Assembly: GCA_003133025.1 (NCBI GenBank)
Contig: PKZK01000036.1
Coordinates: 1 to 18,918, forward strand
Reading direction: 5' to 3'
DNA: 18,918 nt
Source of the DNA: Vulcanimicrobiota bacterium
GTDB lineage: Bacteria; Vulcanimicrobiota; Vulcanimicrobiia; Vulcanimicrobiales; Vulcanimicrobiaceae
Positions 1,670-18,535 of the stretch are shown one piece after another (position 1 is the first letter of the stretch; every line of letters begins with the position of its first letter). The notes under the pieces were generated by a model, which did no database searches, was not told where the DNA came from, and saw nothing but the letters and a program-made list of their open reading frames with translations. Position numbers and translations under genes: made by a program.

Positions 1670-2742
1670 CGAAGGCGCACGACGATAGCGTTCCGGAGTC
1701 GTTGGCGAACCTGATCGAGCGCGCCCGGAGCGCCCAAGCCACCGACGTCCACGTGGATGCGGCGCAAGGCGTCGCCTTTCGCGTCGCATCGTGTATCCGG
1801 CGCATCTCACGCGCCGCTCCCGCACATGAGGACATCCAGCGCTTCGTGGAGGTCGCGCTCGAACGGTTGCCGCGGGCACGCCTGGACAAACTCGGCATCG
1901 CCGACACCCTCTACGCCGACGACCGGGTCGGCGCGTTGCGCGTGCACGTTTCACGAGGTCTGCGAGGCTATCGGCTGGCCATACGACTCCTCGCACGGGC
2001 GGTTCCCGATTTGAGTACCCTGCGCTTGCCGGCGATCGTGGCCAGCTTCGGGGAGTACCGGTACGGCTTGATCTTGCTGTGCGGACCCAGCGGCTCCGGC
2101 AAGACGACCACCGCAGCGTCGCTGTTGCAACGCGCGAACGAGTCCAGCGCGCGCCACGTCGTTACCTTCGAGGCGCCGATCGAGCACGTCCTCACCTGGG
2201 GTACCTCGGTCGTCACGCAGTATGAAGTCGGGCGCGACGTAGCGACGTACGCGCACGGAATTCGAGGCGCGCTGCGCGCCGATCCGGATATCATCTTCAT
2301 CGGCGAACTCAGCGACGACGATGCCGCCGCCGCGTGCCTCCAAGCTGCCGAAAGCGGCCACCTCGTCCTCGGGGCACTCGACGCCCCGCCGGACGTGCCG
2401 CTGGCGTTGAATCGCTTCATCGGGCTGTTCCCCGTCGACGAACAGCAACGTGCGCGCAACCGGTTGTCGGACAATCTTCGCGCCGTCTTGGCACTCCGCT
2501 TGGTGCCGGCCAGCGACGGTTCGGGCTTGCGTGCCGCCGCCGAAATTCTCCTCAGTAACGATGCCGTACGCCGCATGGTGCGTGACGGTGCGCTGCACAC
2601 GCTCCGTTCCGTTCTTGCCGCTAATAAAAAGGCCGGAATGCAGACGCTCGAAATGAGCCTCGGCGACCTCGTCTCGGCGGGCGACGTCGACCTCGAGATC
2701 GCGCGTTCCATCGCGCTCTATCCCGAAGAGATACGTCCCTGA
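1666..2742 (+). CDS. PilT/PilU-family type IV pilus ATPase homologue, divergent (~358 aa)
   Basis: ATDVHV N-domain motif, Walker A GPSGSGKTT, TFEAPIE, ALRADPDIIFIGE Walker B, AAESGHLV, AVRRMVRD (AIRNLIRE equivalent) and GMQT. GTG1666 overlaps the upstream stop. The extension to 1135 in the ORF track is shadow of the HEAT gene. Confidence 0.9.
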   Translation: MTKAHDDSVPESLANLIERARSAQATDVHVDAAQGVAFRVASCIRRISRAAPAHEDIQRFVEVALERLPRARLDKLGIADTLYADDRVGALRVHVSRGLRGYRLAIRLLARAVPDLSTLRLPAIVASFGEYRYGLILLCGPSGSGKTTTAASLLQRANESSARHVVTFEAPIEHVLTWGTSVVTQYEVGRDVATYAHGIRGALRADPDIIFIGELSDDDAAAACLQAAESGHLVLGALDAPPDVPLALNRFIGLFPVDEQQRARNRLSDNLRAVLALRLVPASDGSGLRAAAEILLSNDAVRRMVRDGALHTLRSVLAANKKAGMQTLEMSLGDLVSAGDVDLEIARSIALYPEEIRP

Positions 2743-3770
2743 GGGGTACGAGCCGGCGACGCGAGGCGACGGCATTCCAACGCCGGCTGCTCGAACTCGA
2801 TCGCGAGCGTCTTGCGGCCTGGAGTTCCGTCGCCACGCTTTCCGGCTTGCACGAAGCGTTCGCCGCAATCTCGACCGCGCGCGATCCCGAGGCGATCGTC
2901 GCGCGCACGCTGACCGCCGCCATCGAGGTTCTCGGCTTCGAGCGGGCGGCGTATTTCACGCACGCCGCGAGCGACGACGCAGGCGCCGCAGGCTTGGTCC
3001 TGTTGGCGTACGTCGACGCCTTGGACGCGCCGCCGCCGACGCTCGACTGTTCGGCCCAACTCTGCACGAACGTCGAGCCGCTCAGCGGCGAGGAAGGCGA
3101 GCTTTCCGCGCCGCTCGTCGACGTGCGCAGACGCTACGTGCTCGCGCCGGTGATCTGCGCGAAGGGACGCCTGGGGATGCTGTATCTCGACGGTCCGCGG
3201 GCGGCCGCCCACCGCGACTCGACCCTGCGTCTCATCGAGGCCTTGTGCGCTATTTCCGCAGCGGCGCTCCAAAACGGACTCGCGTTACAACGCACGCGCT
3301 CGCTCGCGTCCAGAGATCCGTTGACGGGCTTGCTCAATCGGCGTGCCTTTCGCGAACGCTTCGAGAGAGAACTCGCGGCGGCGCAACGGGCGGGGCGTTG
3401 TTGCGCCTGCGTGATGCTCGATCTCGACGATCTCAAACGCATCAACGACTCCGGCGGGCACGCGGTGGGTGACGTCGTGCTCAAGCACCTCGCAACCACG
3501 CTCGCGGCGGCGGCGCGCCCGAGCGACATCGTCGCCCGCTTTGGCGGCGACGAGTTCGCGCTAGCCTTCATCGACGTCGAAGTCGCGCCGGCCCGGGCGC
3601 TCGTCCGTCGCCTCTCCGGATCGCTTGCAGCGGCCGGACTCCGTTGCTCCCTGGGAGCCGCGCTTTCGAGCCCGAGCAGCCTCGACGTGGATGCGCTGCT
3701 GCGAGAAGCCGATCGCGCCCTTTACGCCGTAAAAGCCGCCGGCAAGAACGGCTACGCCTTTGCCGATTGA
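2739..3770 (+). CDS. GAF-GGDEF diguanylate cyclase
   Basis: DPLTGLLNRR, DLDDLKRINDSGGHAVGD, RPSD I-site five residues before GGDEF, EADRALYAVK, and an N-terminal GAF-like region (LGFERAAYF...APVICAKGRLGMLYLD). First canonical start is TTG2847; CTG2739 is proposed (see findings). Confidence 0.9.
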   Translation: MRGTSRRREATAFQRRLLELDRERLAAWSSVATLSGLHEAFAAISTARDPEAIVARTLTAAIEVLGFERAAYFTHAASDDAGAAGLVLLAYVDALDAPPPTLDCSAQLCTNVEPLSGEEGELSAPLVDVRRRYVLAPVICAKGRLGMLYLDGPRAAAHRDSTLRLIEALCAISAAALQNGLALQRTRSLASRDPLTGLLNRRAFRERFERELAAAQRAGRCCACVMLDLDDLKRINDSGGHAVGDVVLKHLATTLAAAARPSDIVARFGGDEFALAFIDVEVAPARALVRRLSGSLAAAGLRCSLGAALSSPSSLDVDALLREADRALYAVKAAGKNGYAFAD

Positions 3771-3795
3771 AAGCACCCGCTAAAGAAATTCGTAC

Positions 3796-3818
3796 AGGCC
3801 GGGGCGTCGACCCGGCCT
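3796..3818. other. Perfect 8-bp inverted repeat / hairpin
   Basis: AGGCCGGG (3796-3803), 7-nt loop, CCCGGCCT (3811-3818), between the GGDEF and CDGSH genes. No U-tract follows. Confidence 0.5.
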
Positions 3819-3831
3819 AATGCCACGCAAC

Positions 3832-4053
3832 ATGTCAGACGTTACGATCAGCATTCGTCCCGGCGGCCCGTACTTGGTGCGTGGTCCCATCCAACTGCTC
3901 GATGCCGAGGGCAACGAGATCCCCGACGCGAGCGGCAAACAGAACATCGCGCTCTGCCGTTGCGGCGCGTCGACCAATAAGCCGTTCTGCGACGGCACGC
4001 ATTCGGCCATCGGCTTCCAAGCCGCCGAACGCGCGGTCGAAGAACAGGGCTAA
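3832..4053 (+). CDS. CDGSH iron-sulfur domain protein
   Basis: GPYLVRG and ALCRCGASTNKPFCDGTH match the CDGSH signature C-x-C-x2-S-x3-P-x-C-D-G-(S/T)-H. Start ATG3832, alternative ATG3820. Confidence 0.92.
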   Translation: MSDVTISIRPGGPYLVRGPIQLLDAEGNEIPDASGKQNIALCRCGASTNKPFCDGTHSAIGFQAAERAVEEQG

Positions 4054-5366
4054 TCCACCCACGGCGCGGGCGCAGGCAGCACCACGCCGCTCGCCTCGCC
4101 CAAGCCGATCGGCACGGCGCCGTCGCGCTCGCAGCGGCCGCGCAGGGTCACGAGGTCGCCGTCCTCGAGAAAGCCGCGCAGGCTGCCGTCGGCGAGTTCG
4201 AGCTTCTGCGTACCCCGCTGCGTGAGTTCGAGCAAACTGCCGTAGCTGCCGGGTTCGCTGCCCGAGATCGTGCCCGAGCCGTTGACGTCGCCGGCTTGCA
4301 CGCGCGAACCGTTGCTGCTCAGGTGCGCGAGCTGTTGCGCCATGGTCCAGTACATCGTGCGAAAATTGGTCTCGGCCACCACCGTCGGCGCGACACCCTC
4401 GCGCTGCATCACCTCCGAGGCCAGACCCACCTCGAGCGCGATGTCGAAGTGGTGATTGCCGCGCGGCGCGAGATAATCGAGCGGCGCGGGCTCTTGCACC
4501 GGCCCCGTCGAGCGAAACGGTTCGAGCGCTTCGAGCGGCGTGATCCAGGCCGCGAGCGACGTGCCGAACGATTTGCCCAAAAACGGCCCGAGTGGCTGGT
4601 ACTCCCACGACTGGATGTCGCGCGCGCTCCAATCGTTCATCAGCGCCACGCCGAAGATGTAGTCTTCCGCCTGCCACACCGGAAACGGCGTGCCCAACGG
4701 CGGCCCGTCGCCGGTGATAAAGGCCAACTCCAACTCGATATCCAGCAGACGGCATGGCCCGAACGAGGGCGCCGGCGCGTCGGGCGATTTGCGTTGGCCG
4801 TTGGGGCGCACGATCGGCGTGCCCGACACCACCACGCCGCTCGAGCGGCCGTGATAGCCGATCGGGATCCAGCGATAGTTCGGCAGTAGCGGATCGTCGG
4901 GCCGGAAAAATCGGCCCACGTTGAGCGCGTGGTTCAACGAAGAATAGAAGTCGACGTAATCGCGCACCTCGATCGGCAGCGTCATGCGCACGTCGGATCG
5001 TGCGACCAGCGCCCGCTGGGCGATGCCCTCGTCGCGCAGGCTCAGATCGCCCAGGCTGAGCAATCGTGAGAGCACCCCGCGCACGGCGCGCCACGTCGTC
5101 TTCGGCCGCTGCAGCAGCGCGTTGAGCGTAGGCTGCGCGAACACCCACGCGGCCTCGGGCAGCGCTTCGTCGAGCAGACCCGCGTGCGCGACCGCATGCA
5201 GGTCGAGCACCTTGTCGCCGATGGCCACGCCCAAGCGCGGCGTCGCTTCGCCGGCGCGCACGAAGGCGCCGTAGGGCAAATGCTGGATCGGAAAATCGCT
5301 GCCCGCGGCGCTGGGCACCCACGACTGCAAGCCCGGATCGGTCGTCGGGTCGAACGCGTCGCTCAC
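4050..5366 (-). CDS. fahA: Fumarylacetoacetase
   Basis: SDFPIQHLPYG, DFYSSLNHA, PIGYHGRSS, LDIELE, NDWSARDIQSWEYQPLGPFLGKSF, GSGTISG, FLEDGD motifs; 438 aa; clustered with hmgA and hppD. Confidence 0.96.
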   Translation of the reverse strand: MSDAFDPTTDPGLQSWVPSAAGSDFPIQHLPYGAFVRAGEATPRLGVAIGDKVLDLHAVAHAGLLDEALPEAAWVFAQPTLNALLQRPKTTWRAVRGVLSRLLSLGDLSLRDEGIAQRALVARSDVRMTLPIEVRDYVDFYSSLNHALNVGRFFRPDDPLLPNYRWIPIGYHGRSSGVVVSGTPIVRPNGQRKSPDAPAPSFGPCRLLDIELELAFITGDGPPLGTPFPVWQAEDYIFGVALMNDWSARDIQSWEYQPLGPFLGKSFGTSLAAWITPLEALEPFRSTGPVQEPAPLDYLAPRGNHHFDIALEVGLASEVMQREGVAPTVVAETNFRTMYWTMAQQLAHLSSNGSRVQAGDVNGSGTISGSEPGSYGSLLELTQRGTQKLELADGSLRGFLEDGDLVTLRGRCERDGAVPIGLGEASGVVLPAPAPWVD

Positions 5367-6307
5367 TGCGGCGCCGTGACCAAGATGCCGAGCGCCGTCA
5401 GATCCTCCACCGGCTCGTCGAAACTACAACTGCCGTAGGAGCGGAACGCGCGTATGCGCGCCGCGCCGATGTCGCCCGCGTGCGCGCTCACGCCGCACCA
5501 CGAGAACCGCTCGCTATCGAGCTTGAAGTGCGTCGGATCTTCGTCGGCGAGCAGCGTTTCGAGCGCACGCCGGTCCAACTCGTGAGCGCGCATCAGCACG
5601 GCCGCGCCGGCCACGTTGAGAAAGCCATGCTGCACGTAGCCCGCCTCCGCGTTGAAATGCCGAAACGGATGGTGCAAACCGGCCGTCGCCTTGAAGGGCA
5701 CGCCCAACCCGTGCGCGAGCGCCACGAAGTGGGCAAGGTTCGAGGGAGAAGGCACCGCGTCGGCGTTCGGGCCGCCGCAGCGCACTTTGGCGCACGCGTC
5801 GCGATCGCTCGCTTCGCGATAGCGGCTCAGTTCGAGCAACCACGATTCGAGCGCGATCGGGTCGGCCACGTCGAGTTCCACGTACAACTCCGGCTCGCCG
5901 GGCAAATCGGCGGCTTCGTAGGCCTCCGCGAGCGCGGCAATCGGCGCGCGTGCTTCGATCGTTTCCACGTCGATGCGGCTCGCATGCGCGCGCACGAGCT
6001 CGGCCACCGCCGGCAGGTCGCGCGCCGCGTCGCTGCCGAGCACGACGCTGAGCGGCAACGGTCCCGGCGCATCGTCGCGCTCCAGCGCCGCGATCAGTTC
6101 GTCGAGGCGCGCCGCTTGCACCACGAAGCGGCCGAGCATCCAAAAATGCGTGCCGCTCTCCGCGCGCTCGTGCGCGGCCAACGCGTCGTCGAGGCCCAGG
6201 CTCGCCGGCGGAAAGAGCGGCGCGTGGTCGATCAGTTCGCCCAAGAACGCGCGCGTCGCGGCACCCTCGGCGTGGGGCTGCGCGCCCCGGGCTCGTCTCC
6301 TGCTCAC
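5363..6307 (-). CDS. Conserved-looking uncharacterised enzyme-like protein coupled to fahA
   Basis: 314 aa with motif blocks LIDHAPLFPP, KVRCGG, PFKATAGLHHP, HGFLN, SYGSCSFDEP. TGA overlaps the fahA GTG (GTGA 5363-5366). Confidence 0.85.
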   Translation of the reverse strand: MSRRRARGAQPHAEGAATRAFLGELIDHAPLFPPASLGLDDALAAHERAESGTHFWMLGRFVVQAARLDELIAALERDDAPGPLPLSVVLGSDAARDLPAVAELVRAHASRIDVETIEARAPIAALAEAYEAADLPGEPELYVELDVADPIALESWLLELSRYREASDRDACAKVRCGGPNADAVPSPSNLAHFVALAHGLGVPFKATAGLHHPFRHFNAEAGYVQHGFLNVAGAAVLMRAHELDRRALETLLADEDPTHFKLDSERFSWCGVSAHAGDIGAARIRAFRSYGSCSFDEPVEDLTALGILVTAPQ

Positions 6308-6403
6308 CCCGCTACTCTGCCGGGGGGCGAGACGGGTTTCCTACGGACGCGGCGCCCCCGGAGACGGAGGTAGGCCAGGCGCGCGGGGCGCACTTGAAAG
6401 GCC

Positions 6404-7072
6404 ATCCCACAAGAACGCACGCCCCCGACGCCCGAGCTTTACGTCTCGCTGGATATCGAAGCCGATGGCCCCTGCCCCGGCATCTTTTCCATGCTCAGTT
6501 TCGGCATGGCCGCCTTCACCCTCGAGAAGGAACTGGTCGGCACGTTCAGCCGCAACCTCGAGACGCTGCCCGAGGCGCGCACCGACGCGCGCACGATGCA
6601 ATGGTGGGCGCTGCCCGAGAACGCGACGGCCTACGAGAAGTCGCGCGTCGACCAAATTCCGCCGCAGCAGGCGATGCGCGAGTGCAAGGCGTGGCTCGAG
6701 AGCATGCGCCGCTTCGGGCGTCCGGTGATTTGCGGCGCGCCCAGCGGCTTCGACTTCACCTTCATCTACTATTACTTCCAGCGCGAATTGGGCGAGAGCC
6801 CGGTCGGCTTCGCCAGCCTCGACCTGCGCAGCTACGCCGCCGCGGTGCTCAAGAAGCAGTACCGTCACGTGGGCAAGCGGCAGTATCCGTCGGATTGGAT
6901 CGACGAAGGCCTGCCGCACACGCACGTGGCCCTCGACGATGCGATCGAACAGGGCTCGATCCTGATCAACATGATCCGCGCCAACCTCGACATGCCGCAC
7001 ATCTTCGAACTCATCGACCTGCGCGAGGGCGCGCCGGAAGGCTCGGCCGCCCTGAGCCGGAGCGTCTCTTAA
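6404..7072 (+). CDS. DEDDh 3'-5' exonuclease/exoribonuclease-like protein
   Basis: ExoI YVSLDIEADGPCPG (DIE at 6452-6460) lies in frame upstream of ATG6491; ExoII GFDFTF; ExoIII HTHVALDDA. Start unresolved because of an in-frame TGA at 6395-6397; ATC6404 used here. Confidence 0.8.
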   Translation: MPQERTPPTPELYVSLDIEADGPCPGIFSMLSFGMAAFTLEKELVGTFSRNLETLPEARTDARTMQWWALPENATAYEKSRVDQIPPQQAMRECKAWLESMRRFGRPVICGAPSGFDFTFIYYYFQRELGESPVGFASLDLRSYAAAVLKKQYRHVGKRQYPSDWIDEGLPHTHVALDDAIEQGSILINMIRANLDMPHIFELIDLREGAPEGSAALSRSVS

Positions 7073-7091
7073 GAGCGGGGAAAGAAAAGCA

Positions 7092-8261
7092 ATGCCCTTT
7101 TACGTGCGGGCCGGCGCGGTGCCCGAAAAGCGCCACATCCAGTTTCGCCGCCCCGACGGCGGCCTCTACGCCGAGGAACTCTTCTCGACCAAGGGCTTCT
7201 CGAGCGTCTACTCGCTGCTCTACCACCTGCGCCCGCCGACTGCCGTGCTCGAAGTGCGGCCCTGGGTGCGCGACCCCATCGCCTACCTGCCCAACGATCC
7301 GCTGCGCAACCGCCATCTGCTGACCAGCCGTTCGTCCACGCCGGGCGATGCCGTCGAAGGCCGCGTGCCGCTCTTGGGCAACGCCGACCTCGCGCTCTCG
7401 ATCGCCGACGTCGACCGGCCCATGGACTATTTTTACCGTAACGCGGGCGGCGACGAGCTGCTCTTCGTGCACACGGGCAGCGGCACGCTCGAAACCGTCT
7501 TCGGCGACCTCGCGTATCGCGCGCACGACTATCTGCTCGTGCCCTGCGGCACGACCTATCGCGTGAAGCCTGCGGAGCCCACGCGCTTCGTCATGTACGA
7601 ATCGTCCGGCCAAGTCGAGATCCCCAAGCGCTTTCGCAACGCCTACGGACAACTCGAAGAGCACGCGCCCTATTACGAGCGGGACTTCCGCGCGCCGCTG
7701 CTGCGCGATCCGATCGACGCGCAAGGCGAATACGAAGTGCGCGTGACCAACGCCGGGCGCAACGCGACCCTCGTGATGCAGAACCATCCGTTCGACCTCG
7801 TCGGTTGGGACGGATTCTGTTACCCCTACGCGTTCAACGTGGCCGACTACGCGCCGATCACGGGCAAGTTGCACCAGCCGCCGCCCGTGCACGCCGTTTT
7901 CGAAGCACCCGGTGCGGCGTTTTGCGTGTTCGTGCCGCGGCTCTTCGATTATCATCCGCTCGCGATTCCGGTGCCGTACAACCACTCGAGCGTCGATTGC
8001 GACGAAGTGATCTACTACGTCAACGGTAACTTCATGAGCCGCCGCGGCGTGGAACAAGGCTCGGTCACCTTGCACGCGGCGGGCGCCACGCACGGGCCGC
8101 AGCCGGGCGCCGTCGAGGGCAGCTTGGGCAAGACGAGCACCGACGAAATCGCCATCATGGTCGACACCTTCGCGCCGCTCAACATCGCCGAACGGGCGCT
8201 GGCTTTCGAGCATCGCGACTACTACCGCTCCTGGCTCGAGCCCGTCGCGGCGGGACGGTGA
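7092..8261 (+). CDS. hmgA: Homogentisate 1,2-dioxygenase
   Basis: GFSSVYSLLYH, YRNAGGDELLFVH, PFDLVGWDG, HQPPPVH, iron-ligand region PYNHSSVDCDEVIYY and HGPQPG; 389 aa. Confidence 0.95.
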   Translation: MPFYVRAGAVPEKRHIQFRRPDGGLYAEELFSTKGFSSVYSLLYHLRPPTAVLEVRPWVRDPIAYLPNDPLRNRHLLTSRSSTPGDAVEGRVPLLGNADLALSIADVDRPMDYFYRNAGGDELLFVHTGSGTLETVFGDLAYRAHDYLLVPCGTTYRVKPAEPTRFVMYESSGQVEIPKRFRNAYGQLEEHAPYYERDFRAPLLRDPIDAQGEYEVRVTNAGRNATLVMQNHPFDLVGWDGFCYPYAFNVADYAPITGKLHQPPPVHAVFEAPGAAFCVFVPRLFDYHPLAIPVPYNHSSVDCDEVIYYVNGNFMSRRGVEQGSVTLHAAGATHGPQPGAVEGSLGKTSTDEIAIMVDTFAPLNIAERALAFEHRDYYRSWLEPVAAGR

Positions 8262-8986
8262 ACGCCGCGGCGCGCGCGCCGTGGTACTTTCGTTATCGCG
8301 TCTTCCTGATCGCGGGCGCTTACGCGGCCGGCTTCGTCATCGGCGACCTGCTCATGCCCGCGAGCGCGCCCACCTTCGTGCGCCTCGGCGCGCTGACGCC
8401 GGCGTGGTTCGGCGCGCAGGGCATGCTCCGGCTGATCGCATTGCTCACGCTCGCCGGCGCGCTCTGGCGGATTTGGGGCGCGGCCTATCTTTCCTCGGCC
8501 GTGGTGCACTCGTGGGACGTGCAAACGGGAACGCTCTACGTGGGCGGACCGTATCGCTTCACGCGTAATCCGCTCTACCTCGGCAACGTGTGTTGGGCGC
8601 TCGCGATCGGCGCGTACGGCACGCCGCTCGCTACGGCGCTGGTGGTACTCTTCAACCTCATCGTCGTCGAACTCTTGATCCGCACCGAGGAACGCGCGAT
8701 GCGCTCGCGCTTCGGCGCGCGCTATGTTGAGTACGAAGCGACGGTACCTCGCCTGTTTCCGCTCTGGTTCAAGGCCGGTCCGCCGGGGCCGGCGCTGCGA
8801 CCCGACTGGCGGCAGGGCCTGCGCTCGGAGCTGTTCGGCCTCGCCTTCGTGGGGCTCACCTTCGCCTATTGTCTGGGCTTCCATCAAGCGGCGGGGCTCT
8901 TCTGGGCCGCCGCGCTCTTGCTGATCGCGGTGGGTTTCGTGCGCGGCCGGACCAAGGGTCTGCCCTCCGGCCCGCCAATCTCTTAA
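8258..8986 (+). CDS. Isoprenylcysteine carboxyl methyltransferase (ICMT/PEMT)-family membrane protein
   Basis: LYVGGPYRFTRNPLYLG, EERAMRSRFGARYVEYEATVPRLFP and several hydrophobic helices; GTGA overlap with hmgA. Confidence 0.88.
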   Translation: MNAAARAPWYFRYRVFLIAGAYAAGFVIGDLLMPASAPTFVRLGALTPAWFGAQGMLRLIALLTLAGALWRIWGAAYLSSAVVHSWDVQTGTLYVGGPYRFTRNPLYLGNVCWALAIGAYGTPLATALVVLFNLIVVELLIRTEERAMRSRFGARYVEYEATVPRLFPLWFKAGPPGPALRPDWRQGLRSELFGLAFVGLTFAYCLGFHQAAGLFWAAALLLIAVGFVRGRTKGLPSGPPIS

Positions 8987-9026
8987 CGGTTCTCTTCTTC
9001 CGCTACTTCCGCATCATGGAGCGACG

Positions 9027-10142
9027 TTGGCTACCGAAACGACGGAGCGCGCCTCCGCGCTCGACCTCCTCGACTGGGACCATCTCCACTTCTTCGTGGG
9101 CAACGCCAAGCAGGCGGCACATTACTACGCGACGGCCTTCGGCTTCCGCATCACGGCCTACGCAGGCCCCGAAACCGGCGTGCCCGAGCGCGCCTCGTAT
9201 CTGCTCGAACAGAACGATCTGCGCTTCGTCGTGACCAGCGCCCTGCGCCCGGACGATCCGGCCGCGGCCCACGTCGCCCTCCACGGCGACGGCATCAACG
9301 ACATCGCGTTGCGCGTGCCCGACGCCGCCGCCGCTCACGCGGAAGCGGTTGCGGCCGGGGCGCGGTCGGTCTCCGCGCCGCAACGCCTCTCGGATGCGGA
9401 CGGCTCGGTCGTGGTCGCGACCATCGCCACGTACGGCGATACGGTGCATACGTTCGTCGAGCGCGATGGGTACGCGGGCACGTTTCTGCCCGGCTTCGTG
9501 AAGGTCGCGACGAGCCAAGCTGCGCCGCACGCGCCCGGCCTGCGCGCGATCGATCACTGCGTGGGCAACGTCGGCTGGAACGAGATGGACGCCTGGGCCG
9601 ACTTCTACGGCAAAGCCTTCGGCTTCAGCCAATTGGTGTCGTTCGACGATACCGACATCTCGACCGAGTACACGGCGCTGCGCTCGAAGGTGATGTCCGA
9701 CGCGCGGCGCCGCGTGAAGTTTCCGATCAACGAGCCCGCCGAAGGCCTCAAGAAGTCGCAGATCGAGGAATACCTCGACGCCTATCGCGGCGCAGGCGTG
9801 CAGCACGTCGCGATCGCGACCGACGACATCGTTGCGGCGGTGCGCGCCCTGCGCGCCAACGGCGTGCAGTTCCTCGACACGCCGGGCTCCTATTACGACG
9901 CCCTCGAAGCGCGCGTAGGCCACATCGACGAAGAGATCGAGGTGCTGCGCGAGCTGAGCATCCTGGTCGACCGCGACGACTTGGGCTACATGCTCCAGAT
10001 CTTCACCAAGCCGCTGCAAGACCGGCCGACGCTCTTCTTCGAAATCATCCAGCGCCGCGGCAGCCTCTCGTTCGGCAAAGGCAACTTCAAGGCGCTGTTC
10101 GTGTCGATCGAAGAGGAACAAGGCCGTCGCGGCAACCTGTGA
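9027..10142 (+). CDS. hppD: 4-hydroxyphenylpyruvate dioxygenase
   Basis: DHLHFFVGNAKQAAHYY, IDHCVGNV, KSQIEEYL, GVQHVA, LQIFTKP, FFEIIQR, FGKGNFKALF. TTG start with GGAG at 9018-9021. Confidence 0.96.
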   Translation: MATETTERASALDLLDWDHLHFFVGNAKQAAHYYATAFGFRITAYAGPETGVPERASYLLEQNDLRFVVTSALRPDDPAAAHVALHGDGINDIALRVPDAAAAHAEAVAAGARSVSAPQRLSDADGSVVVATIATYGDTVHTFVERDGYAGTFLPGFVKVATSQAAPHAPGLRAIDHCVGNVGWNEMDAWADFYGKAFGFSQLVSFDDTDISTEYTALRSKVMSDARRRVKFPINEPAEGLKKSQIEEYLDAYRGAGVQHVAIATDDIVAAVRALRANGVQFLDTPGSYYDALEARVGHIDEEIEVLRELSILVDRDDLGYMLQIFTKPLQDRPTLFFEIIQRRGSLSFGKGNFKALFVSIEEEQGRRGNL

Positions 10143-10169: not shown

Positions 10170-10218
10170 GCAAAGCGGGCCCGGTGTGAGCGTCCTCGCA
10201 TCGTGGCCCGTTTTGCTA
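10170..10218 (+). terminator. Long RNA hairpin; probable intrinsic terminator, attenuator or small RNA
   Basis: GCAAAGCGGGCC-CGGTGTGAG / loop CGTC / CTCGCATCG-T-GGCCCGTTTTGC gives 21 bp with one bulge and three G-U pairs; TTTT at 10211-10214. Confidence 0.65.
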
Positions 10219-10253
10219 GCAGACGCGCGGCGCGCGCCAAAGCGTCGCGCATC

Positions 10254-10679
10254 ATGCTACAGGCGTTCGCTTTTGCAATCGCCCTCTATGCGGGCACGGA
10301 TCGCTCCGCCGACGCTCGCGCCATGTGGCGCGACCTCAATGCCGTACGCGTCTCGGCGGGCTTGACGCCGCTCGCCTTCGAGCCCCGCTTGTGCGAGATC
10401 GCACGGGCGCACGCGCACGACATGGTGGCGCGGCATTACTTCGATCACCAGTCACCCGACGGCGTGGGGCCGTTCGACCGAATGGCGCGCGCGGGCTGGC
10501 ATTTCGGCTATGCCGGCGAGAATCTCGCGATGGACACCGACGAACGAGGCGCCGAGGCGCACCTCCTGTCCTCGCCCGAGCACCGTCAAAACATGCTCGA
10601 GCCGCATTACGCGCACGTCGGGATCGCGGCGGTCGAGACCGACTCGCGCGAGTATTTCGTCGAAGTCTTTAGCGACTGA
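10254..10679 (+). CDS. CAP (SCP-like) domain protein, probably exported
   Basis: LNAVRVSAGLTPL, ARAHAHDM, YFDHQSPDG, AGENLA, SPEHRQNML, HVGIA. Hydrophobic N-terminus from ATG10254 (alternative GTG10203). Confidence 0.9.
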   Translation: MLQAFAFAIALYAGTDRSADARAMWRDLNAVRVSAGLTPLAFEPRLCEIARAHAHDMVARHYFDHQSPDGVGPFDRMARAGWHFGYAGENLAMDTDERGAEAHLLSSPEHRQNMLEPHYAHVGIAAVETDSREYFVEVFSD

Positions 10680-11526: not shown

Positions 11527-11990
11527 GGGTCGGTCAACACGATGGGCGTGCGGCGCGGTTGCGGGATGCCCGTGACCGTCGGGCGCGGCGTGGGCACGGG
11601 CGTCGGCGTGAAGGTGGCAAGCGGCCCCGGCGGCGGCGAGTAACCCGCAAACGGCGTCAGCGTCGCCACCGGAGCGGGCGGCGGGCTCTGAATGGAAAGC
11701 GTATGCGAGGCGGCGTCGTATCGTACGAGGTCGCCCAGTCCGCGCGCGGCCGCGCCGAGCGGCACGAACGCGTCGTCACCCGGAGGTAGGCCCATCGTAA
11801 CGCTTCTGCCCTCGCGCTCGAAGGTGATCGACCCGGCCGACGGGTCGACCGTGATGCGCTGGGCCAGGGCGAAGCCGAAGGGCGCGAGGGGCGCCAACAC
11901 GGTCCCGTCCACGAGCCGGGCCGGCACGGCCGCGTACACGGGACGCCCGTCGACGACGACCGTAACCGGCGGCGCGCTCACGGGTAGCAA
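11514..11990 (-). CDS. Copper amine oxidase N-terminal (stalk)-like domain protein with Pro/Thr-rich tail
   Basis: VTVVVDGRPV...PARLVDGTVLAPL...AFVPLGAAARGLGDLVRYDAASHTLSI, then a PTPVPTPRPT tail. Start TTG11990 or GTG11981. The longer ORF to 12683 is antisense to yihY. Confidence 0.7.
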   Translation of the reverse strand: MLPVSAPPVTVVVDGRPVYAAVPARLVDGTVLAPLAPFGFALAQRITVDPSAGSITFEREGRSVTMGLPPGDDAFVPLGAAARGLGDLVRYDAASHTLSIQSPPPAPVATLTPFAGYSPPPGPLATFTPTPVPTPRPTVTGIPQPRRTPIVLTDPWRK

Positions 11991-11996
11991 CGGCGC

Positions 11997-12824
11997 GTGT
12001 CCAAGCTGATCGCGATCTTCCGCACCGCGGGCAAGCGGTTCTCGGAAGACGGCTGTGCGTTCATGGCCCAGGCGATCGCCTTCAACGCGATGTTCGCCGT
12101 CTTTCCGCTGTTGATGCTGGCCTTCGCGGCATTCGGGTTCATCTACGGCGGTGCCCAAGGCGAGCAGCGCATCCAGGATCTGGTCAAGCATCTGGCGCCC
12201 GCGGTGCAGCCGTTGATCTTCGAGAACGCCCAGCACATCGTCGCCTTCCGCAGCATCTCGGGCGTGACGGCCGTCGTCGGGCTCATCTGGTCGGGTAAGA
12301 ACCTCTTCCAGACCCTGGCGTTCTCGCTCGACCGGGCGCTCGGCGTGACCCAGGGCCGGTCGCTGGTCTTCGACATCCTCGTCGCCTTGGTTGCCCTGCC
12401 GGTTTTCGGCGTGATCTTGCTGGGCGCGACGGCCGTGCCGGTCGGGATTTCGTACGTGGTGACGCTGGGCGGCTTCGCGCACGCCGCTTTCCTCACGCAG
12501 GCGGCGGGATACGCGGCGGGCATTCTGCTCGTTTTCGTCGTAACGATGCTCCTCTACGCGTATCTTCCCAATCGCCGCGTCTCGCCGTGGTTCGGCGTGC
12601 CGGGGGCGATCGTCACGACGATCGCTTGGGAAGTTTCGCAGATCGCGTTTGCGATCTACTCCACGCACGTGGATTTCCGCCACGTGTACGGCGCGCTCGC
12701 AACGGTCGCCGTCCTCCTGCTTTGGTTCTACTACATGGCATTCATCTTCTTGTTCGGCGCGGAGGTCAGCGCCCAGACCCTGGCTTACGACAGCGCGGCA
12801 AAGCCCGTCAGGCGGTCGGCGTGA
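11997..12824 (+). CDS. YihY/virulence factor BrkB family membrane protein
   Basis: AQAIAFNAMFAVFPLL, LYAYLPN, GAIVTTIAWE, VYGALATVAVLLLWFYYMAFIFLFGAEV; about six hydrophobic helices. Confidence 0.92.
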   Translation: MSKLIAIFRTAGKRFSEDGCAFMAQAIAFNAMFAVFPLLMLAFAAFGFIYGGAQGEQRIQDLVKHLAPAVQPLIFENAQHIVAFRSISGVTAVVGLIWSGKNLFQTLAFSLDRALGVTQGRSLVFDILVALVALPVFGVILLGATAVPVGISYVVTLGGFAHAAFLTQAAGYAAGILLVFVVTMLLYAYLPNRRVSPWFGVPGAIVTTIAWEVSQIAFAIYSTHVDFRHVYGALATVAVLLLWFYYMAFIFLFGAEVSAQTLAYDSAAKPVRRSA

Positions 12825-13825
12825 GGCGTTCCCTCAACGCGCGGCGGCTGCTCGGCGTGCTGGCGCTGGCGTTCTTCGGGTTCGTGCCCTTCATGGGCGC
12901 GTACACCTCGGCGCCGCCGGTCGTGATCGTCTATCCGCTGACGGTGGGCTCGGGCGCAAACCCGGAATCGGGCAGCAACATCGCCGTCCTGATCGCGCAA
13001 GGGCTCGCCCAGCACGGCGTAACGGTCAAGCCCGCGCCGCCCGGCACGCAGCGCGCCGACTATCTCACCGTCGCGCAAGCCGCCGGCGCCGACTACTACG
13101 TCACCGGCTTCCTGACCGCGCTCGGCGATGAGGTGTCGATGGTGTTGCAGGCGGTCAGCACCAGCAGCGGCAGCATCATCAACAGCACCACGACCGTCGT
13201 GAAAACGTACGCCGAGGCCGCCGGTCAGGCGCCGTCGCTAGCCGATGCGATCCTGCGCCATTCCGGCCGCGCGCTCGCCCAACTCGACGAACCCAAAGCC
13301 GTCGACAGCGCCACGCCGCAACCGAGTCGCAGCGACAAAGGCAACGAGGCCAACCTCAACGGCTTGGGCGGCATCTTCCACCACAAGCCCAAGGCAGCGC
13401 CCTCACCCGGGCCGGGTACGCTGGCGCTCGCGGAGCGGCGCGTGCTGATCTCGCAAGTCGGCGGCGACGCCGGCTCGGAACTTGCGCAACGCGCTTCGCG
13501 CGCGGTGACCGCGGCAGCAGGCCATGGCGGCGTCGCAACGCAGGCGTTGCCCGTGTCGGCGGCCGAGGTCGAGGCGCACGGCGCGGATTTCTGCAAGAAC
13601 AACGCGGGCACGCAGATGCTCTACGCCACCACGGTCACGCTGCAAAAGAATGCCGCGGGCCAGCCGACCGGCGTCGGCGTCGACGTGGTCACCTTCGATT
13701 GTGCGGGTAACGCCGTCGCGCGGCATCACGGCGAAGCGCCGGCCTCGGGCCGCGGCGGCCTCGATGCGGCGCTCGATCGCGCGGTAGCCGCGGCCCTCGC
13801 CGCCGCGGCGCCGAAGCCGGGCTAA
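12821..13825 (+). CDS. Exported hypothetical protein, possible CsgG/TolB-N-like domain
   Basis: GTG12821 overlaps the yihY TGA. Basic plus hydrophobic signal (RRSLNARRLLGVLALAFFGFVPF) and pattern VVIVYPL...AQAAGADYYVTGFL...VSTSSGSII. Confidence 0.7.
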   Translation: MRRSLNARRLLGVLALAFFGFVPFMGAYTSAPPVVIVYPLTVGSGANPESGSNIAVLIAQGLAQHGVTVKPAPPGTQRADYLTVAQAAGADYYVTGFLTALGDEVSMVLQAVSTSSGSIINSTTTVVKTYAEAAGQAPSLADAILRHSGRALAQLDEPKAVDSATPQPSRSDKGNEANLNGLGGIFHHKPKAAPSPGPGTLALAERRVLISQVGGDAGSELAQRASRAVTAAAGHGGVATQALPVSAAEVEAHGADFCKNNAGTQMLYATTVTLQKNAAGQPTGVGVDVVTFDCAGNAVARHHGEAPASGRGGLDAALDRAVAAALAAAAPKPG

Positions 13826-13838
13826 CGCCGGCGCGCCG

Positions 13839-14264
13839 TTATTTCAGCGAGCGCAGATAGGCGACGATCGCCGTCGCGTCGGCCTGGTTGAAGCGATAAC
13901 CCGGCATCGGCGCCTTCGCTTTGCTCCCATCCGGCAGGGCGCCGGTTCGCAGGAACGTCAGCGCATCGGCGTCGGTCGCGAACATCTTCAGGCCGCGCAG
14001 CGAGGGCACGGTGTCGGCCCACGGCACGCCGGGCCTGGGTTTGACTTTATTGGGGCCACCCTGCAACTGCGCGTTATGGCAATCGGCGCACTGGCCCGCG
14101 TCACCGGTGAGATACTCGCCGCGTGCGAGCAGATCGGCCGGCGCGGCGGTCTGCGCCAGCGCCCGGCTCGCCGAATGCCCTACCGCCAGGGCGACGAGGA
14201 AACCCGCCGCCACGGTCGACAGCAGCATTTGGGCACCGCGCTTCGTCGCGAACGGATTTTTCAT
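13839..14264 (-). CDS. Monoheme c-type cytochrome, exported
   Basis: Signal peptide ending ALA-QT, ARGEYL, heme motif CADCH, likely Met ligand in APMPGY, AIVAYLRSLK. Confidence 0.92.
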   Translation of the reverse strand: MKNPFATKRGAQMLLSTVAAGFLVALAVGHSASRALAQTAAPADLLARGEYLTGDAGQCADCHNAQLQGGPNKVKPRPGVPWADTVPSLRGLKMFATDADALTFLRTGALPDGSKAKAPMPGYRFNQADATAIVAYLRSLK

Positions 14265-14285
14265 GCGCCGCGTATACGACGGCAG

Positions 14286-14792
14286 CTAGAGCAGGCCTTC
14301 GGGCAAATCTCCGACCGCAATCGTGCGCGCTTCGAGGTCGATGGCGCCGATGAAGGCTTTGACCATCGGCACGAGTGCGCGCTGCGGCCCGACGACCAAA
14401 CAGTCTTGGGCCGGAAAGTGTTCGATGCCGACCACTTCGCCCAGCAGCTTTCCCGAGGCGTCGATCAAGCGTAGCCCGATCAGGTCGGCGTCGAGATACT
14501 CGCCCGGCTCGAGATGCACGGCGGCGCGCTCGGCGTAGAGTTCGCAGCCGACGAACGGCTGCGCGGCCTCGACCGTGTGCACGCCTGCGAGCGCGATCAC
14601 GTAGCGCGACTTGTGGCGCCGGATCGATTCGAGCGAGACCCGCTGTGCGCTGGGCCGCGCACTCAGAGCGTATTCCGAACCCGCATGTAACGCGCTCTCG
14701 CCTGCCGACGTCGGGTCGCACTTCAACTCGCCGCGCACGCCGAAGATGCCCGTCAAGCGGGCAATGGGCACGAGCGCTGCGGCATCGCTCAC
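14286..14792 (-). CDS. rimM: 16S rRNA processing protein RimM
   Basis: IARLTGIFGVRGELK, EPGEYLDADLIGL, LGEVVGI, LVPMVKAFIGAIDLE. GTG14792 overlaps the lspA TGA; 168 aa; position in the rpsP operon. Confidence 0.93.
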   Translation of the reverse strand: MSDAAALVPIARLTGIFGVRGELKCDPTSAGESALHAGSEYALSARPSAQRVSLESIRRHKSRYVIALAGVHTVEAAQPFVGCELYAERAAVHLEPGEYLDADLIGLRLIDASGKLLGEVVGIEHFPAQDCLVVGPQRALVPMVKAFIGAIDLEARTIAVGDLPEGLL

Positions 14793-15250
14793 GCGGCGGC
14801 GGTTTCCCGAGCGGGCGGCGTGCGCAGCGAGGCGATCGCCATCAAGACCAGTCCCACCGTGATGCACGCGTCGGCACCGTTGAAGATGTAGAACCAGCGG
14901 GGCGCGATGAAGTCGATCACGTAGTGGTGCAGCACGCGATCGATCACGTTACCGAACGCGCCCCCAAGCACCAAGCCGAAGCCGATCTGCGCGAGCGGCG
15001 ATTCGCGGATGAGATCGCGCAGCATCAGCGTCAAGCCGGCCACCACCACGAAGGCGAGTACGATCAGCAGCCACGAGCGGTCGCCGAAGAGACCCATCGC
15101 TCCGTGGGTATTTTGCGCGTAGGTAAAGTCGAGCACGCCGGGCACGATCGTCCGGCGTTGGCCGGGTACGAACGATGCCGCGATCGCGCGTTTGGTCAGG
15201 AGATCGAAAATGCCCGCGAACGCGAGTGCGAGGGCGATCCGATTGAACGT
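14789..15250 (-). CDS. lspA: Lipoprotein signal peptidase II
   Basis: DLLTK (first helix), NTHGAMG, GGAFGNVIDR, VIDFI, IFNGADACI. The first transmembrane helix lies upstream of GTG15145; ACG15250 is proposed as start. Confidence 0.92.
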   Translation of the reverse strand, partial: TFNRIALALAFAGIFDLLTKRAIAASFVPGQRRTIVPGVLDFTYAQNTHGAMGLFGDRSWLLIVLAFVVVAGLTLMLRDLIRESPLAQIGFGLVLGGAFGNVIDRVLHHYVIDFIAPRWFYIFNGADACITVGLVLMAIASLRTPPARETAAA

Positions 15251-15253
15251 AGG

Positions 15254-15817
15254 TTACGACTCGGTTTCGACGTCGGTCGCCGGCGTATCGTCGACTTCTT
15301 CTTCGTCGTCGTCTTCATCGTCGACGTCGATGATGTCGATCGTGACCCGGCCTTCGGCACCCGCGCGTACCAGCGTGCGCAGGGCCTGCGCGACGCGACC
15401 GCCCCGGCCGATCACTTTGCCCAGATCCTCGGGATCCACTTCGAGTTCGAGCCGCGCGCCGCGGGAATCGGGCACGGTCTCGATGCGGATCGCATCGGGG
15501 TTGGACACCAGGCGCTTGGCCAGGAACGTCAGCAGCTCGACGGCGCGCGGCAGCGCGACCTCGTCGGGAATCGGATCGCGTTTGACCGCCTCGCGACGGC
15601 GCGGCACGAAACTGCCGCCGGGCTTCGCCTCGAACGTCCCGTTGCCGCCCGACGGACCGCGACGGCGCGGCCGGATCGATTCGTCTTCGGGTTCGATCTC
15701 GTCGATGATCGTTTCGCTGGTGTTGATCCGGCGCGCGCCGAGGGTGGAGCGGCGCTCGTCGTCGGCCGCCTCGCCTTCTTCGCCGAAGAGTCCGAACTCG
15801 TCGTCGAATGCGCTCAC
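15254..15817 (-). CDS. khpA: KH-domain RNA-binding protein KhpA/YlqC with long N-terminal and acidic C-terminal extensions
   Basis: LLTFLAKRLVSNPDAI...DLGKVIGRGGRVAQALRTLV (GxxG KH loop), immediately downstream of rpsP. Confidence 0.88.
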   Translation of the reverse strand: MSAFDDEFGLFGEEGEAADDERRSTLGARRINTSETIIDEIEPEDESIRPRRRGPSGGNGTFEAKPGGSFVPRRREAVKRDPIPDEVALPRAVELLTFLAKRLVSNPDAIRIETVPDSRGARLELEVDPEDLGKVIGRGGRVAQALRTLVRAGAEGRVTIDIIDVDDEDDDEEEVDDTPATDVETES

Positions 15818-15820
15818 GGC

Positions 15821-16111
15821 TTAACCCTTCTTCGCTTTGGGCTCGCGCTTCGTCGTCGGCACGAAGCCGCGCTCGACGAGACCCTTCTCCGCCAGGAGAC
15901 GCCGCACCGGATCCGAGGGCTGTGCGCCCTTGGCGAGCCATTCCTTGATCTTCTCGTCGTTGACGACGACGGTCTTCGGCTCGGTGCGAGGGTTGTAATG
16001 ACCCACGATTTCGATGAAGCGGCCGTCGCGCGGCGAGCGCGCGTCGGTCACGACGAAACGGTACGTGGGTTGTTTCTTGGCGCCCATGCGCCGGAGACGG
16101 ATCTTAACCAT
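15821..16111 (-). CDS. rpsP: 30S ribosomal protein S16
   Basis: [41 protein letters not shown]...[14 protein letters not shown] upstream of ATG. Confidence 0.98.
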
Positions 16112-16153
16112 GGAATTCCTACGTCACTTTCGGGTGGTAAATCGGCTCGCCCG

Positions 16154-17476
16154 TTACCGGCCGAGACCAAAGGGAAGGCGCGGCCGTTTCCCGCCGCCCA
16201 ACTGTTTCATCATCTGACGCGAAGCCTCGAACTGTTTGACCAGCCGGTTGACTTCGGCGACCTGCGTCCCGCTGCCGAGCGCGATGCGCTTGCGTCGCGA
16301 GGCGTTGAGGATGTCGGGCCGGCGGCGCTCCTGACGGGTCATCGAGCAGATGATCGCCTCGACCCGTCCGACGTCTTTCTCGTCGATCTCCAGATCCTTG
16401 GGCATCATCTTCTGCATGCCCGGGATCATCTTGACGATCTCGGCCATCGAGCCCATCTTGCGCACTTGACGCAATTGATCGAGGAAGTCGTCGAGGGTGA
16501 AGTCGTTCTTGCGCAGCTTCTGTTCGAGCGCTTTGGCCTGCTCGATCGAATAGACCGATTGCGTCTTCTCGATCAGCGTCAGCACGTCGCCCATGCCCAG
16601 GATGCGCGAGGCCAAGCGATCCGGATAGAACGTCTCGAGCGCCGACAACTTTTCGCCGACGCCCACGAACTTGATCGGCGCGCCGGTCATCGCGAAAATC
16701 GAGAGCGCCGCGCCACCGCGCGCGTCGCCGTCCATCTTGGTCAGGATGACGCCCGTGATCGTGAGTTGCGCGTTAAAGCCCTTGGCGACGTTGGTCGCTT
16801 CTTGGCCCGTCATCGCGTCCGCGACGAACAAGATCTCCTTGGGCTTGACCGCGGCCTTGATCTTTTCGAGTTCGACCATCAGCGCTTCGTCGATCTGCAG
16901 CCGTCCGGCCGTATCCACGATGACGATCGGGATGCCCAGCCGCTGGGCTTCGGCGACGCCGTGCTTGGCGATATCGACCGGGTTCGCGCGCTCCTCGGAG
17001 TACACGGGCAAATCGAGTTGGCGGCCGAGCGTCTTGAGCTGTTCCACAGCGGCCGGGCGGTAGATGTCGGCCGCGACCAACAGCGAACGGCGACCCTGCT
17101 CCTTGAGCCGCAGCGCCAATTTGCCTGCGTGGGTCGTCTTGCCCGAGCCTTGCAAGCCGACGAGCATGATCACCGTCGGCGGTGCGTCGGAGAATTGCAG
17201 CCGCGACTGCGCCCCGCCCATCAGCGCCACCAGCTCGTCGTGCACGATCTTGATGACCGATTGGGCAGGCGTCAGCGACGCCAAAACGTCGGCGCCGACC
17301 GCCTTCTCCTTGACTTTCGCGACGAAGTCTTTGGCGACGGAGAGGTTGACGTCGGCTTCGAGCAAAGCGACGCGCACTTCGCGCGCGACGTCGTTGACGT
17401 CGGCTTCGGTCAGCCGTCCGCGACTCGTCAGACGCTGAAAGATCGCCCCCAGGCGATCGGAGAGCGCTTCTAGCAT
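16154..17476 (-). CDS. ffh: Signal recognition particle protein
   Basis: ALLEADV, GLQGSGKTT, DIYRPAA, DTAGR, TKMDGDARGGAALS, RILGMGD, Met-rich M domain, SRRKRIALGSG. Confidence 0.98.
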   Translation of the reverse strand: MLEALSDRLGAIFQRLTSRGRLTEADVNDVAREVRVALLEADVNLSVAKDFVAKVKEKAVGADVLASLTPAQSVIKIVHDELVALMGGAQSRLQFSDAPPTVIMLVGLQGSGKTTHAGKLALRLKEQGRRSLLVAADIYRPAAVEQLKTLGRQLDLPVYSEERANPVDIAKHGVAEAQRLGIPIVIVDTAGRLQIDEALMVELEKIKAAVKPKEILFVADAMTGQEATNVAKGFNAQLTITGVILTKMDGDARGGAALSIFAMTGAPIKFVGVGEKLSALETFYPDRLASRILGMGDVLTLIEKTQSVYSIEQAKALEQKLRKNDFTLDDFLDQLRQVRKMGSMAEIVKMIPGMQKMMPKDLEIDEKDVGRVEAIICSMTRQERRRPDILNASRRKRIALGSGTQVAEVNRLVKQFEASRQMMKQLGGGKRPRLPFGLGR

Positions 17477-17507
17477 CGCAGGCCGGAGCTACGCCCCATG
17501 GCGCAAC

Positions 17508-17759
17508 TCAGCCCTTCGGGGCGGTCTCGTCGATCTTGCGTACGGCATCGCCGACGGTTTTGATCTTTTCCGCCTCTTCATCTGGAATGTCGATATTGAA
17601 CTCGGTTTCGAACGCCATCACCAATTCGACTTGATCGAGTGAGTCCGCGCCGAGGTCGTCGGTGATCGATGCTTCCATCGTCACCTCCGCCTCGTCGACG
17701 CCCAATTGCTCGACGATGATCTTCTTAACCTTATCGAAGGTGGTCTGAGTATCCGCCAT
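17508..17759 (-). CDS. acpP: Acyl carrier protein
   Basis: [17 protein letters not shown] phosphopantetheine site, [20 protein letters not shown] ribosome-binding site at 17763-17767 (- strand). Confidence 0.98.
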
Positions 17760-17791
17760 GGTCTCCTGTCCTAGGGGCGCCGAGCGCCGAT

Positions 17792-18535
17792 TTACATGAA
17801 AAAGCCGCCGTCGACGACGATCGTTTGACCGGTCACGTAGCGGGCGGCATCGGAGCAGAGGAACGTAACGACCCCACTGACGTCTTCCGGCGTTCCCGAT
17901 CGGCCGAGGGGGATCGTTGCGAGGAAGTGTGCTCGGGCCTGATCCGGCAGCGATTCCGTCATCGCCGTTTCGATGAGACCGGGCGCGACGGCATTGACTC
18001 TTACGTTCCGCGACCCCAATTCCTTCGCTACGGACTTGGCCAGGCCCAAGAGGCCTGCCTTGGCGGCCGCATAGCCGGCCTGCCCGGCGTTGCCGGTGAG
18101 GCCCACGATCGAGGAAACGAGCACGATCGCGCCCGAGCGCTGGCGCATCATGGGCTTGGCCACCGCGCCGCAGAGGTAGAACGCCGACTTGAGGTTGACC
18201 GCCAGCACCTGCTCGAGGTCGGCCGGTTTGAGGCGCACGAGCAGGTTGTCGAGGCTCTGCCCGGCATTGGCCACCGCGATGTCGACCCGGCCGAGCTCCG
18301 CGATCGTCCGGGCGACGGCCGCCTCGACGGCGGCGGCGTCGGTCACGTCGGCTGCGATCTCCAGGGTGCGAGCCTCCGGGCGGGCCGCGCGGACGGCTGC
18401 GGCCGACTCGGCCAGCGCCTCCGTGTCCCGGCCCACCAGCGCGACGTCCGCGCCGGCCCGCGCCAGGTCGACGGCGATGGCGCGTCCGATGCCCCGGCTC
18501 GCGCCGGTCACGATCGCGACCTGCCCGGCGCTCAG
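17792..18535 (-). CDS. fabG: 3-oxoacyl-ACP reductase
   Basis: [30 protein letters not shown] (YxxxK), [26 protein letters not shown]; lies between fabD and acpP. CTG18535 is proposed as start (247 aa). Confidence 0.95.

Follow-up and report, generated by a model that had tools for sequence, protein, structure and literature searches.

In bacteria, initiation at near-cognate codons is usually viewed as a matter of a few regulatory exceptions per genome. We analysed an 18,918-nucleotide (nt) stretch of DNA, hereafter the window, which makes up contig PKZK01000036.1 of the Vulcanimicrobiota bacterium assembly GCA_003133025.1 and in which four of about 23 genes, coding for a GGDEF protein, a 3'-5' exonuclease, a signal peptidase II (lspA) and FabG, appear to start at CTG, ATC or ACG rather than at a canonical ATG, GTG or TTG. 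The closest described cases are infC (AUU/AUA) and pcnB (AUU) of Escherichia coli and other bacteria, which likewise combine one-mismatch starts with conserved genes (10.1101/063800, PMC2830850). As presented in the accessible parts of those sources, they amount to one or two regulatory exceptions per genome, whereas we find at least 17 to 29 cases among 566 scored genes, mostly metabolic enzymes and enzymes acting on tRNA or rRNA, and most of them at gene overlaps.

Deinococcus offers a nearer parallel in dnaA (ATC), rpsL (CTG) and Deide_03051 (CTG), essential genes of a GC-rich lineage whose starts annotation had missed; four genes are known there in all, with peptide evidence for dnaA and rpsL, whereas ours are known from sequence alone (PMC2830850). 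The portion of that account available to us mentions neither a link to overlaps nor ATA or GTA codons on TAA/TAG stops. Termination-reinitiation coupling at ATGA and TGATG shares with our cases the 4-nt overlap, internal motifs resembling the Shine-Dalgarno (SD) sequence and an ordinary frequency, but the available parts of the sources describe it for canonical starts, whereas here CTG also falls on TGA and ATA (perhaps GTA or CTA) on TAA/TAG (PMC6728339, PMC12548453, PMC2268962). A literature search that left most subscription papers and supplements outside its reach found no paper on non-AUG starts of pth or on the start codons of this phylum. New here are the class-wide extent and the ATA codons on TAA/TAG overlaps.

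Four near-cognate starts in the window

The window is one contig (C208) of a fragmented metagenome bin, here called G000, of 3.35 Mb in 265 contigs with 66.5% guanine plus cytosine (GC) and an estimated completeness of 80%. We compared it with 40 relatives, 24 from the same family, 5 from the same order and 11 from the same class. Three of the genomes (G018, G020 and G036) are unpublished and supply single rows in some tallies, G018 for fabG, lspA, tmk and gmk, G020 for lspA and infC, and G036 for infC, 16S and gmk; they have no part in the counts for the exonuclease, for pth or genome-wide, and no conclusion rests on them. DNA near-identical to the window is present in peat and permafrost metagenomes from many studies, and RNA runs contain small shares of it as assembled contigs.

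That four genes of the window need near-cognate starts, as the earlier note had proposed, held up for all four. In the GGDEF gene, whose product matches the Pfam domain, the 38 open codons upstream of the CTG at 2739 contain no canonical start and the first canonical codon lies 36 codons downstream. The CTG of fabG at 18535 is similarly isolated: the nearest upstream GTG is 117 codons away inside fabD, and the next GTG, 8 codons downstream, would cost the protein 8 residues, including the first 4 positions of its Pfam adh_short match. Three syntenic relatives of the GGDEF gene have ATG, ATG and GTG 1-2 codons from the CTG position, and an ATG, GTG or TTG lies about 5 codons or less from the fabG CTG in all 28 scorable relatives (29 loci, one dropped at a contig end). 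Neither near-cognate codon is conserved, each being found in G000 only among the relatives seen. Because the relatives have canonical starts at these positions, both CTGs look like private changes of G000 at an ordinary overlap.

The remaining two genes differ in that their codons are shared. In lspA, an in-frame TAA stands 2 codons upstream of the ACG at 15250 and the first GTG 35 codons downstream, while the Pfam match begins at frame residue 13. The closest relative, G010, shares the ACG after an in-frame stop, and its next codons differ synonymously. G000 and G010 carry two lspA paralogues each, the second G000 copy being on contig C81; the ACG-started copy sits between khpA and rimM, and the best match in most other relatives is in a different gene context.

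The exonuclease has an in-frame TGA 3 codons upstream of the ATC at 6404, and its first ATG (6491) lies 29 codons downstream; a protein started there would lack the D-I-E motif, which can be aligned with PDB 7t2s. Among 19 distinct close homologues (21 rows including two duplicates), 18 share an ATC at this position, in frame and 9-13 codons upstream of the catalytic Y-x-S-x-D motif; the remaining homologue has GTG. Eight of the 19 lack any canonical codon after the upstream in-frame stop. Two outgroup loci with a matching motif start at ATG and TTG. The earlier note had left the choice between ATC, ACG and a frameshift, and of these ATC is the one that the homologues support. A frameshift from an upstream TTG is ruled out by their in-frame ATC, and also because four homologues, like the window, have an in-frame stop just upstream.

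The mis-annotation of N-termini that the note predicted is also visible for this gene: the public protein collection lists the truncated product of 193 residues for 23 contigs, so a near-cognate start has likely shortened at least one public gene call. The ATC form is absent from that collection, which means little because it was queried with Ile as residue 1.

Frequency in the source genome and across the class

To estimate a genome-wide rate we used a codon model trained on 3159 G000 genes and compared orthologues with 1.34 of the 2.7 Mb of G010 and 0.4 of the 3.0 Mb of G004. Reciprocal best matches passing the filters numbered 498 of 750 (G010) and 132 of 229 (G004), covering 566 distinct G000 genes. 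In the comparison with G010 an automatic orthologue rule picked out 34 G000 genes, and in that with G004 it picked out 11. Used alone as a counter this rule was discarded, for it also flags conserved 5' untranslated regions, tRNA genes, masked stretches, long ATG overlaps and the selenocysteine UGA in selD. We therefore added a filter requiring a curated family model (Pfam for lspA and the exonuclease) to begin upstream of the first canonical codon; an exact-register tally was too noisy for counting cases.

With this filter, 17 of the 566 scored genes (3.0%) have no usable canonical start: moaC, tyrA, nrdR, truA, scpA, tmk, deoC, ribD, hisB, lspA, the exonuclease, rsmE, an aminotransferase gene, glxK, pth, hisH and a cobC-like phosphatase gene. 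Alignment alone adds 12 further genes, including gmk, for a total of 29 of 566 (5.1%). The 3-5% range is more likely too low than too high because the rule misses genes with a chance GTG or TTG nearby; cases it overlooked include infC, dapB, holA and ksgA, as well as fabG, which was split over two fetched pieces. Thus the excess described for the window extends beyond it, though at a lower rate, the window being enriched (4 of 23 genes, 17%, against about 5% genome-wide; P=0.026).

Fourteen of the 17 model-confirmed cases directly follow an upstream stop codon; the other three, the exonuclease, nrdR and deoC, would be de novo starts. Ten are in the −4 register, as four CTGA, three GTAG, two ATAG and one CTAA. 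The candidate codons one base from AUG are CTG, ATC, ATA, ATT and ACG; in tmk, pth, ribD and the cobC-like gene of G000 the best-placed codon is GTA or CTA, at least two changes from AUG, and other codons could serve. Conservation of the codon across relatives is seen for the exonuclease, for lspA, gmk, nrdR and rsmE (in 2-3 genomes) and for tmk and pth as ATA. In deoC of G000 (contig C177), 7 codons separate an in-frame stop from the conserved core, and the N-terminal extension present in G010 and G004 is missing; the gene would be either CTG-started or truncated.

Beyond G000, the pattern is seen across the class in pth. In 16 of 22 class genomes no canonical codon lies within 12 codons of the sequence for the first strand, whereas a canonical start is found 2-7 codons before it in all 18 scorable outgroup genomes (19 fetched, one without a recognisable motif; mostly Gammaproteobacteria, several with a local GC content of 64-73%). 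The gene upstream of pth, likely rplY by gene order, has its stop in the −4 register in 12 of these 16 genomes, with spacings of 2-13 codons. In 7 of 11 cases the base before the TAA or TAG is an A, against 12-19% in uncoupled pairs, an excess that points to selection for ATA. Three of the four cases outside the register have a CTG 0-2 codons past an in-frame stop.

In tmk, all ten sister-family genomes fetched have an ATA that overlaps the upstream stop and precedes the first Phe by five codons, mostly 7 nt after GGAGG or GGA; two of the ten also carry TTG. The same register, with no upstream canonical codon, holds GTA in G000, G010 and G021, CTA in G008 and CTG in G004, while tmk of G014 has ACG immediately before Phe. 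Most other family members have a canonical tmk start. For gmk the codon is CTG in G000, G010 and G004, with GGAGGA upstream of it in G000, against ATG, GTG or TTG in 19 other family members. Judged from these alignments, near-cognate starts are a trait of the class Vulcanimicrobiia and not of this organism alone.

As a control we applied the same rule to a pair of genomes from the gammaproteobacterial family of the named Methylotetracoccus record, with 62-64% GC and 100 kb taken per genome. None of its 72 gene pairs survives the filter. All 19 flagged control genes with a family model were rejected (acs by a 3-residue margin), and the other three flagged genes have an ATG or GTG a few codons on.

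A number of points weigh against this picture. The counts depend on the second filter and on judgement, and several genes offer more than one possible near-cognate codon. The control is small and too closely related (72 pairs, median identity 93%), the automatic rule flags 22 of its 72 pairs, and Fisher's test against it gives P=0.13 for 17 of 566 and P=0.03 for 29 of 566. For pth, the nominal P of 1e-6 for class against outgroup overstates the difference because related genomes are not independent observations. Five of the 19 exonuclease homologues have a TTG or GTG 8-25 codons upstream, besides the ATC. Homology-free frame counts back the picture for CTG alone. Where the first canonical start of a CTGA pair lies beyond 30 nt, the frame of the CTG is favoured 30:11 in G000 and 8:1 in G010, a result weakened, as regards the 30:11, by uncoupled CTGA pairs that already favour this frame 15:9. 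Overlaps at TAA/TAG (NTAA/NTAG) show no genome-wide frame excess (25:26 and 82:71), and a combined frame test that included a coding-score filter did not reach significance (29:19, P=0.10).

Initiation mechanism and competing explanations

We consider it likely that about 3-5% of the scored conserved genes of G000 start at near-cognate codons through an ordinary-looking initiation apparatus, and that pth and tmk do so across the class. At most of these genes, we infer, the ribosome that terminates on the upstream gene is already in place at a codon on or just after the stop (CTGA, ATAG, ATAA) and would reinitiate there despite one mismatch to the initiator (formylmethionyl) tRNA, often with the aid of an SD-like motif located 6-8 nt before the codon. 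Reinitiation does not account for every case, since the exonuclease, nrdR and gmk lack an overlap; this minority would probably be weak de novo starts. Near-cognate starts of either sort are likely to be weak and IF3-sensitive (IF3, initiation factor 3) and to serve low-abundance housekeeping proteins. What the sequences show directly is the lack of canonical starts, the conservation and the geometry of the overlaps, whereas the precise codon, the reinitiation, the weak output and the sensitivity to IF3 are inferred. In E. coli, the available part of one study reports, CUG, AUA, AUC and AUU behind a strong ribosome-binding site give 1-2% of AUG output (10.1101/063800). A comparable output could suffice for low-copy enzymes, and reinitiation may yield more. 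Selection across genera would keep some of the codons, such as the ATC of the exonuclease and the ATA of tmk and pth, while those of fabG and the GGDEF gene look like recent drift from ATG or GTG.

A tentative extension is that the third base of the start codon does not matter to a ribosome that reinitiates, so that NUA on UAA/UAG would work like NUG on UGA. If so, GUA (perhaps also CUA) would be a natural, conserved start for the essential tmk, pth and ribD. In E. coli, a recJ mutant initiating at GUA was reportedly found by Haggerty and Lovett in 1997 to be suppressed by IF3 mutations; it points to GUA as a usable start under IF3 control, and differs from the present case in being a laboratory mutation rather than a natural conserved start. 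In tmk (G000, G010, G021), pth (G000, G004) and ribD (G000, G010), a GTA occupies the −4 register and follows an SD-like motif at a distance of 6-8 nt; sister lineages have ATA or CTG at these sites. Against such starts are the lack of a frame excess at TAA/TAG, the frequency with which G precedes stops by chance and the ATC or CTG alternatives in several of the genes. Starts at GTA in GTAG and GTAA overlaps are best regarded as possible.

The earlier note named assembly error as the main alternative, and a fragmented metagenome bin invites that suspicion. We can scarcely credit that such errors made the four cases. Gap-free contig pieces from four other studies span 2739 in four of four runs, 15250 in four of four and 18535 in three of four, and the codons at all three positions are unchanged in these independent contigs; two other runs span the fabG site without difference. 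A G>A strain variant at 2744, in two of four runs, falls just past the CTG and is synonymous in the GGDEF frame. For 6404 the gap-free cover is one in four among the pieces listed, and the exonuclease case is made instead by the conservation of ATC in relatives. The same codons also recur in other genera, including the single-contig genomes G004, G006 and G009. On this evidence the four window cases are real and not assembly errors. A second alternative is that the downstream proteins are fusions, made by −1 frameshifting or stop readthrough, or that they start at canonical codons far inside the upstream gene. The −4 register is indeed also the −1 frameshift register, and some cases have a canonical codon 14-117 codons upstream within the preceding gene, but we think this most improbable. 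No co-directional gene lies close upstream of the exonuclease, nrdR or gmk; in fabG, the GGDEF gene and gmk, close relatives have ATG or GTG at exactly the position of the proposed start; and an in-frame stop precedes most cases. At pth, recoding would have to be of two kinds, since the stop of the preceding gene is in the −4 register in some genomes but in frame in others.

The starts might also be real but their rate ordinary for GC-rich bacteria, at 1-3% in many lineages, and hidden by gene callers that accept only ATG, GTG and TTG. The Deinococcus starts at ATC and CTG, seen in dnaA and rpsL by N-terminomics and in two more genes by alignment, are consistent with this (PMC2830850, in its available part). 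So is the circularity of the published low rates, which in the parts available to us are annotation-based (PMC5622118, 10.1101/063800); the survey of some 69,000 ancestral starts that counted 4 switches to CUG and 2 to AUU (PMC5622118) is circular for that reason. Our genome-wide control is, moreover, underpowered. We nonetheless find an ordinary rate unlikely, given the consistently canonical pth starts of the outgroup, GC-rich members included, as against a nearby canonical codon in only 6 of 22 class genomes, and given that no control pair survives the filter. Equally doubtful is a relaxed checkpoint, in which a changed IF3, ribosome or initiator tRNA would let any weak codon near a stop be accepted. 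The high use of GTG (82 of 240 starts matched for register; control, 7 of 51), the predominance of GTGA over ATGA (221:189) and the candidate GTA starts with two mismatches would fit it; excess IF3 lowers reinitiation in E. coli, an effect that an SD sequence blunts (PMC2268962, available part), so that low IF3 would raise it. The apparatus itself argues otherwise. The earlier note had asked for a check of IF3, IF1, initiator tRNA and the 16S anti-SD for unusual substitutions; among the genomes checked no unusual change is visible in IF3, initiator tRNA, anti-SD or the S9 tail, and IF1 is present. IF3 is complete and aligns across both domains with three solved IF3 structures; that of G000 (L115:1252-1980) has a long His/Asp-rich C-terminal tail, and the family has tails of various lengths. 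Its gene, infC, starts at ATA, ATC or ATT in all 29 parsed loci (30 fetched), with ATA in G000. Autoregulation of infC through its near-cognate start is established (PMC2830850, available part), and retention of that start speaks for an IF3 that still discriminates. All 15 relatives with an assembled 16S end have a canonical anti-SD; the G000 assembly lacks 16S. In the readable part, the initiator tRNA of G000 has C1, three G-C pairs and a CAU anticodon. RsmD and the S9 tail have been linked to start-codon fidelity (PMC3643588, as far as available); the tail ends in SKR in four genomes, and a presence check found RsmD, RRF and IF1 in five of five. The IF1 gene infA is present twice in G004 (C1:398319 and 1089334) and once in the four other genomes checked. 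Subtle substitutions or a low IF3 level would be compatible with, and could coexist with, our preferred reading of reinitiation on an ordinary-looking apparatus. Of the earlier proposal of termination-reinitiation with relaxed discrimination, the first part thus agrees with most of the model-confirmed cases, while the second finds no counterpart in the parts of the apparatus checked and several starts appear to be de novo.

If this preferred reading is right, a class of common soil and peat bacteria apparently uses near-cognate starts for one gene in 20-30, essential enzymes included, and would provide a natural test of start-codon stringency in de novo initiation and in reinitiation. A cultured member of the class, Vulcanimicrobium, is reportedly on record (PMC9758169), and such a test therefore appears feasible. 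The available part of a 2025 review lists stringency in the two modes among the open questions (PMC12548453). In practical terms, gene calls in the phylum can lose catalytic N-termini, as has happened to the exonuclease, and we predict similar losses for the P-loop of Tmk, the first strand of Pth and the zinc ribbon of NrdR.

Overlap usage and other features

The seven NTGA junctions claimed for the window are all present (Table 1), five as GTGA (1666, 5366, 8258, 12821, 14792) and two as CTGA (2739, 18535). They do not amount to the heavy translational coupling that had been proposed. Co-directional pairs with 4-nt overlaps make up 450 of 1828 in G000 (24.6%), 25.9% in G010 and 28.2% in G004, against 33 of 125 (26.4%) in the control. 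The 525 overlaps on the 3159 genes of G000 come to 17%, near the roughly 15% of overlapping pairs (up to 30%) given for most groups in the available part of PMC6728339, where the denominator may differ from ours. The scarcity of SD motifs is likewise real in the window but not unusual, with matches of at least 4 nt before 69 of 198 non-overlapping starts (35%) against 13 of 34 (38%) in the control.

Table 1. Features located in the window, numbered from its first base
Feature	Position	Strand	Basis
GTGA stop/start overlap into PilT-like ATPase gene	1666..1669	+	sequence
GGDEF gene, likely CTG start on TGA of PilT-like gene (CTGA 2739-2742)	2739..3770	+	
GTGA overlap into fumarylacetoacetase gene	5363..5366	-	sequence
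Rv2179c-like 3'-5' exonuclease, likely ATC start, no overlap	6404..7072	+	
GTGA overlap, hmgA into ICMT-like methyltransferase gene	8258..8261	+	sequence
hppD, GGAG SD-like motif and TTG start	9018..9029	+	sequence
GTGA overlap, YihY/BrkB gene into hypothetical gene	12821..12824	+	sequence
GTGA overlap, lspA into rimM	14789..14792	-	sequence
lspA paralogue (signal peptidase II), likely ACG start 3 nt past khpA stop	14789..15250	-	
fabG, likely CTG start on fabD TGA (CTGA 18532-18535)	17792..18535	-	

Positions 4050-10142 hold a tyrosine catabolism cluster (fahA, hmgA, hppD) interspersed with the exonuclease, the ICMT-like methyltransferase and a 314-residue protein (5366-6307) that has no Pfam match. 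Upstream of lspA, at 15257-15817 on the minus strand, lies the gene of a KhpA-like KH protein that is acidic at both ends, in a long N-terminal extension (about 90 residues) and in its tail; the Pfam match is limited to residues 94-153.

Elsewhere in G000, tRNA clusters on contigs C19, C25 and C153 contain duplicated Lys, His, Arg, Pro, Phe, Asn, Tyr, Cys and Gly genes and are possibly tRNA arrays of mobile elements. In selD (contig C56; L171), the selenocysteine position is occupied by an in-frame TGA in G000 as well as in G010, and the lineage likely makes a selenoprotein SelD.

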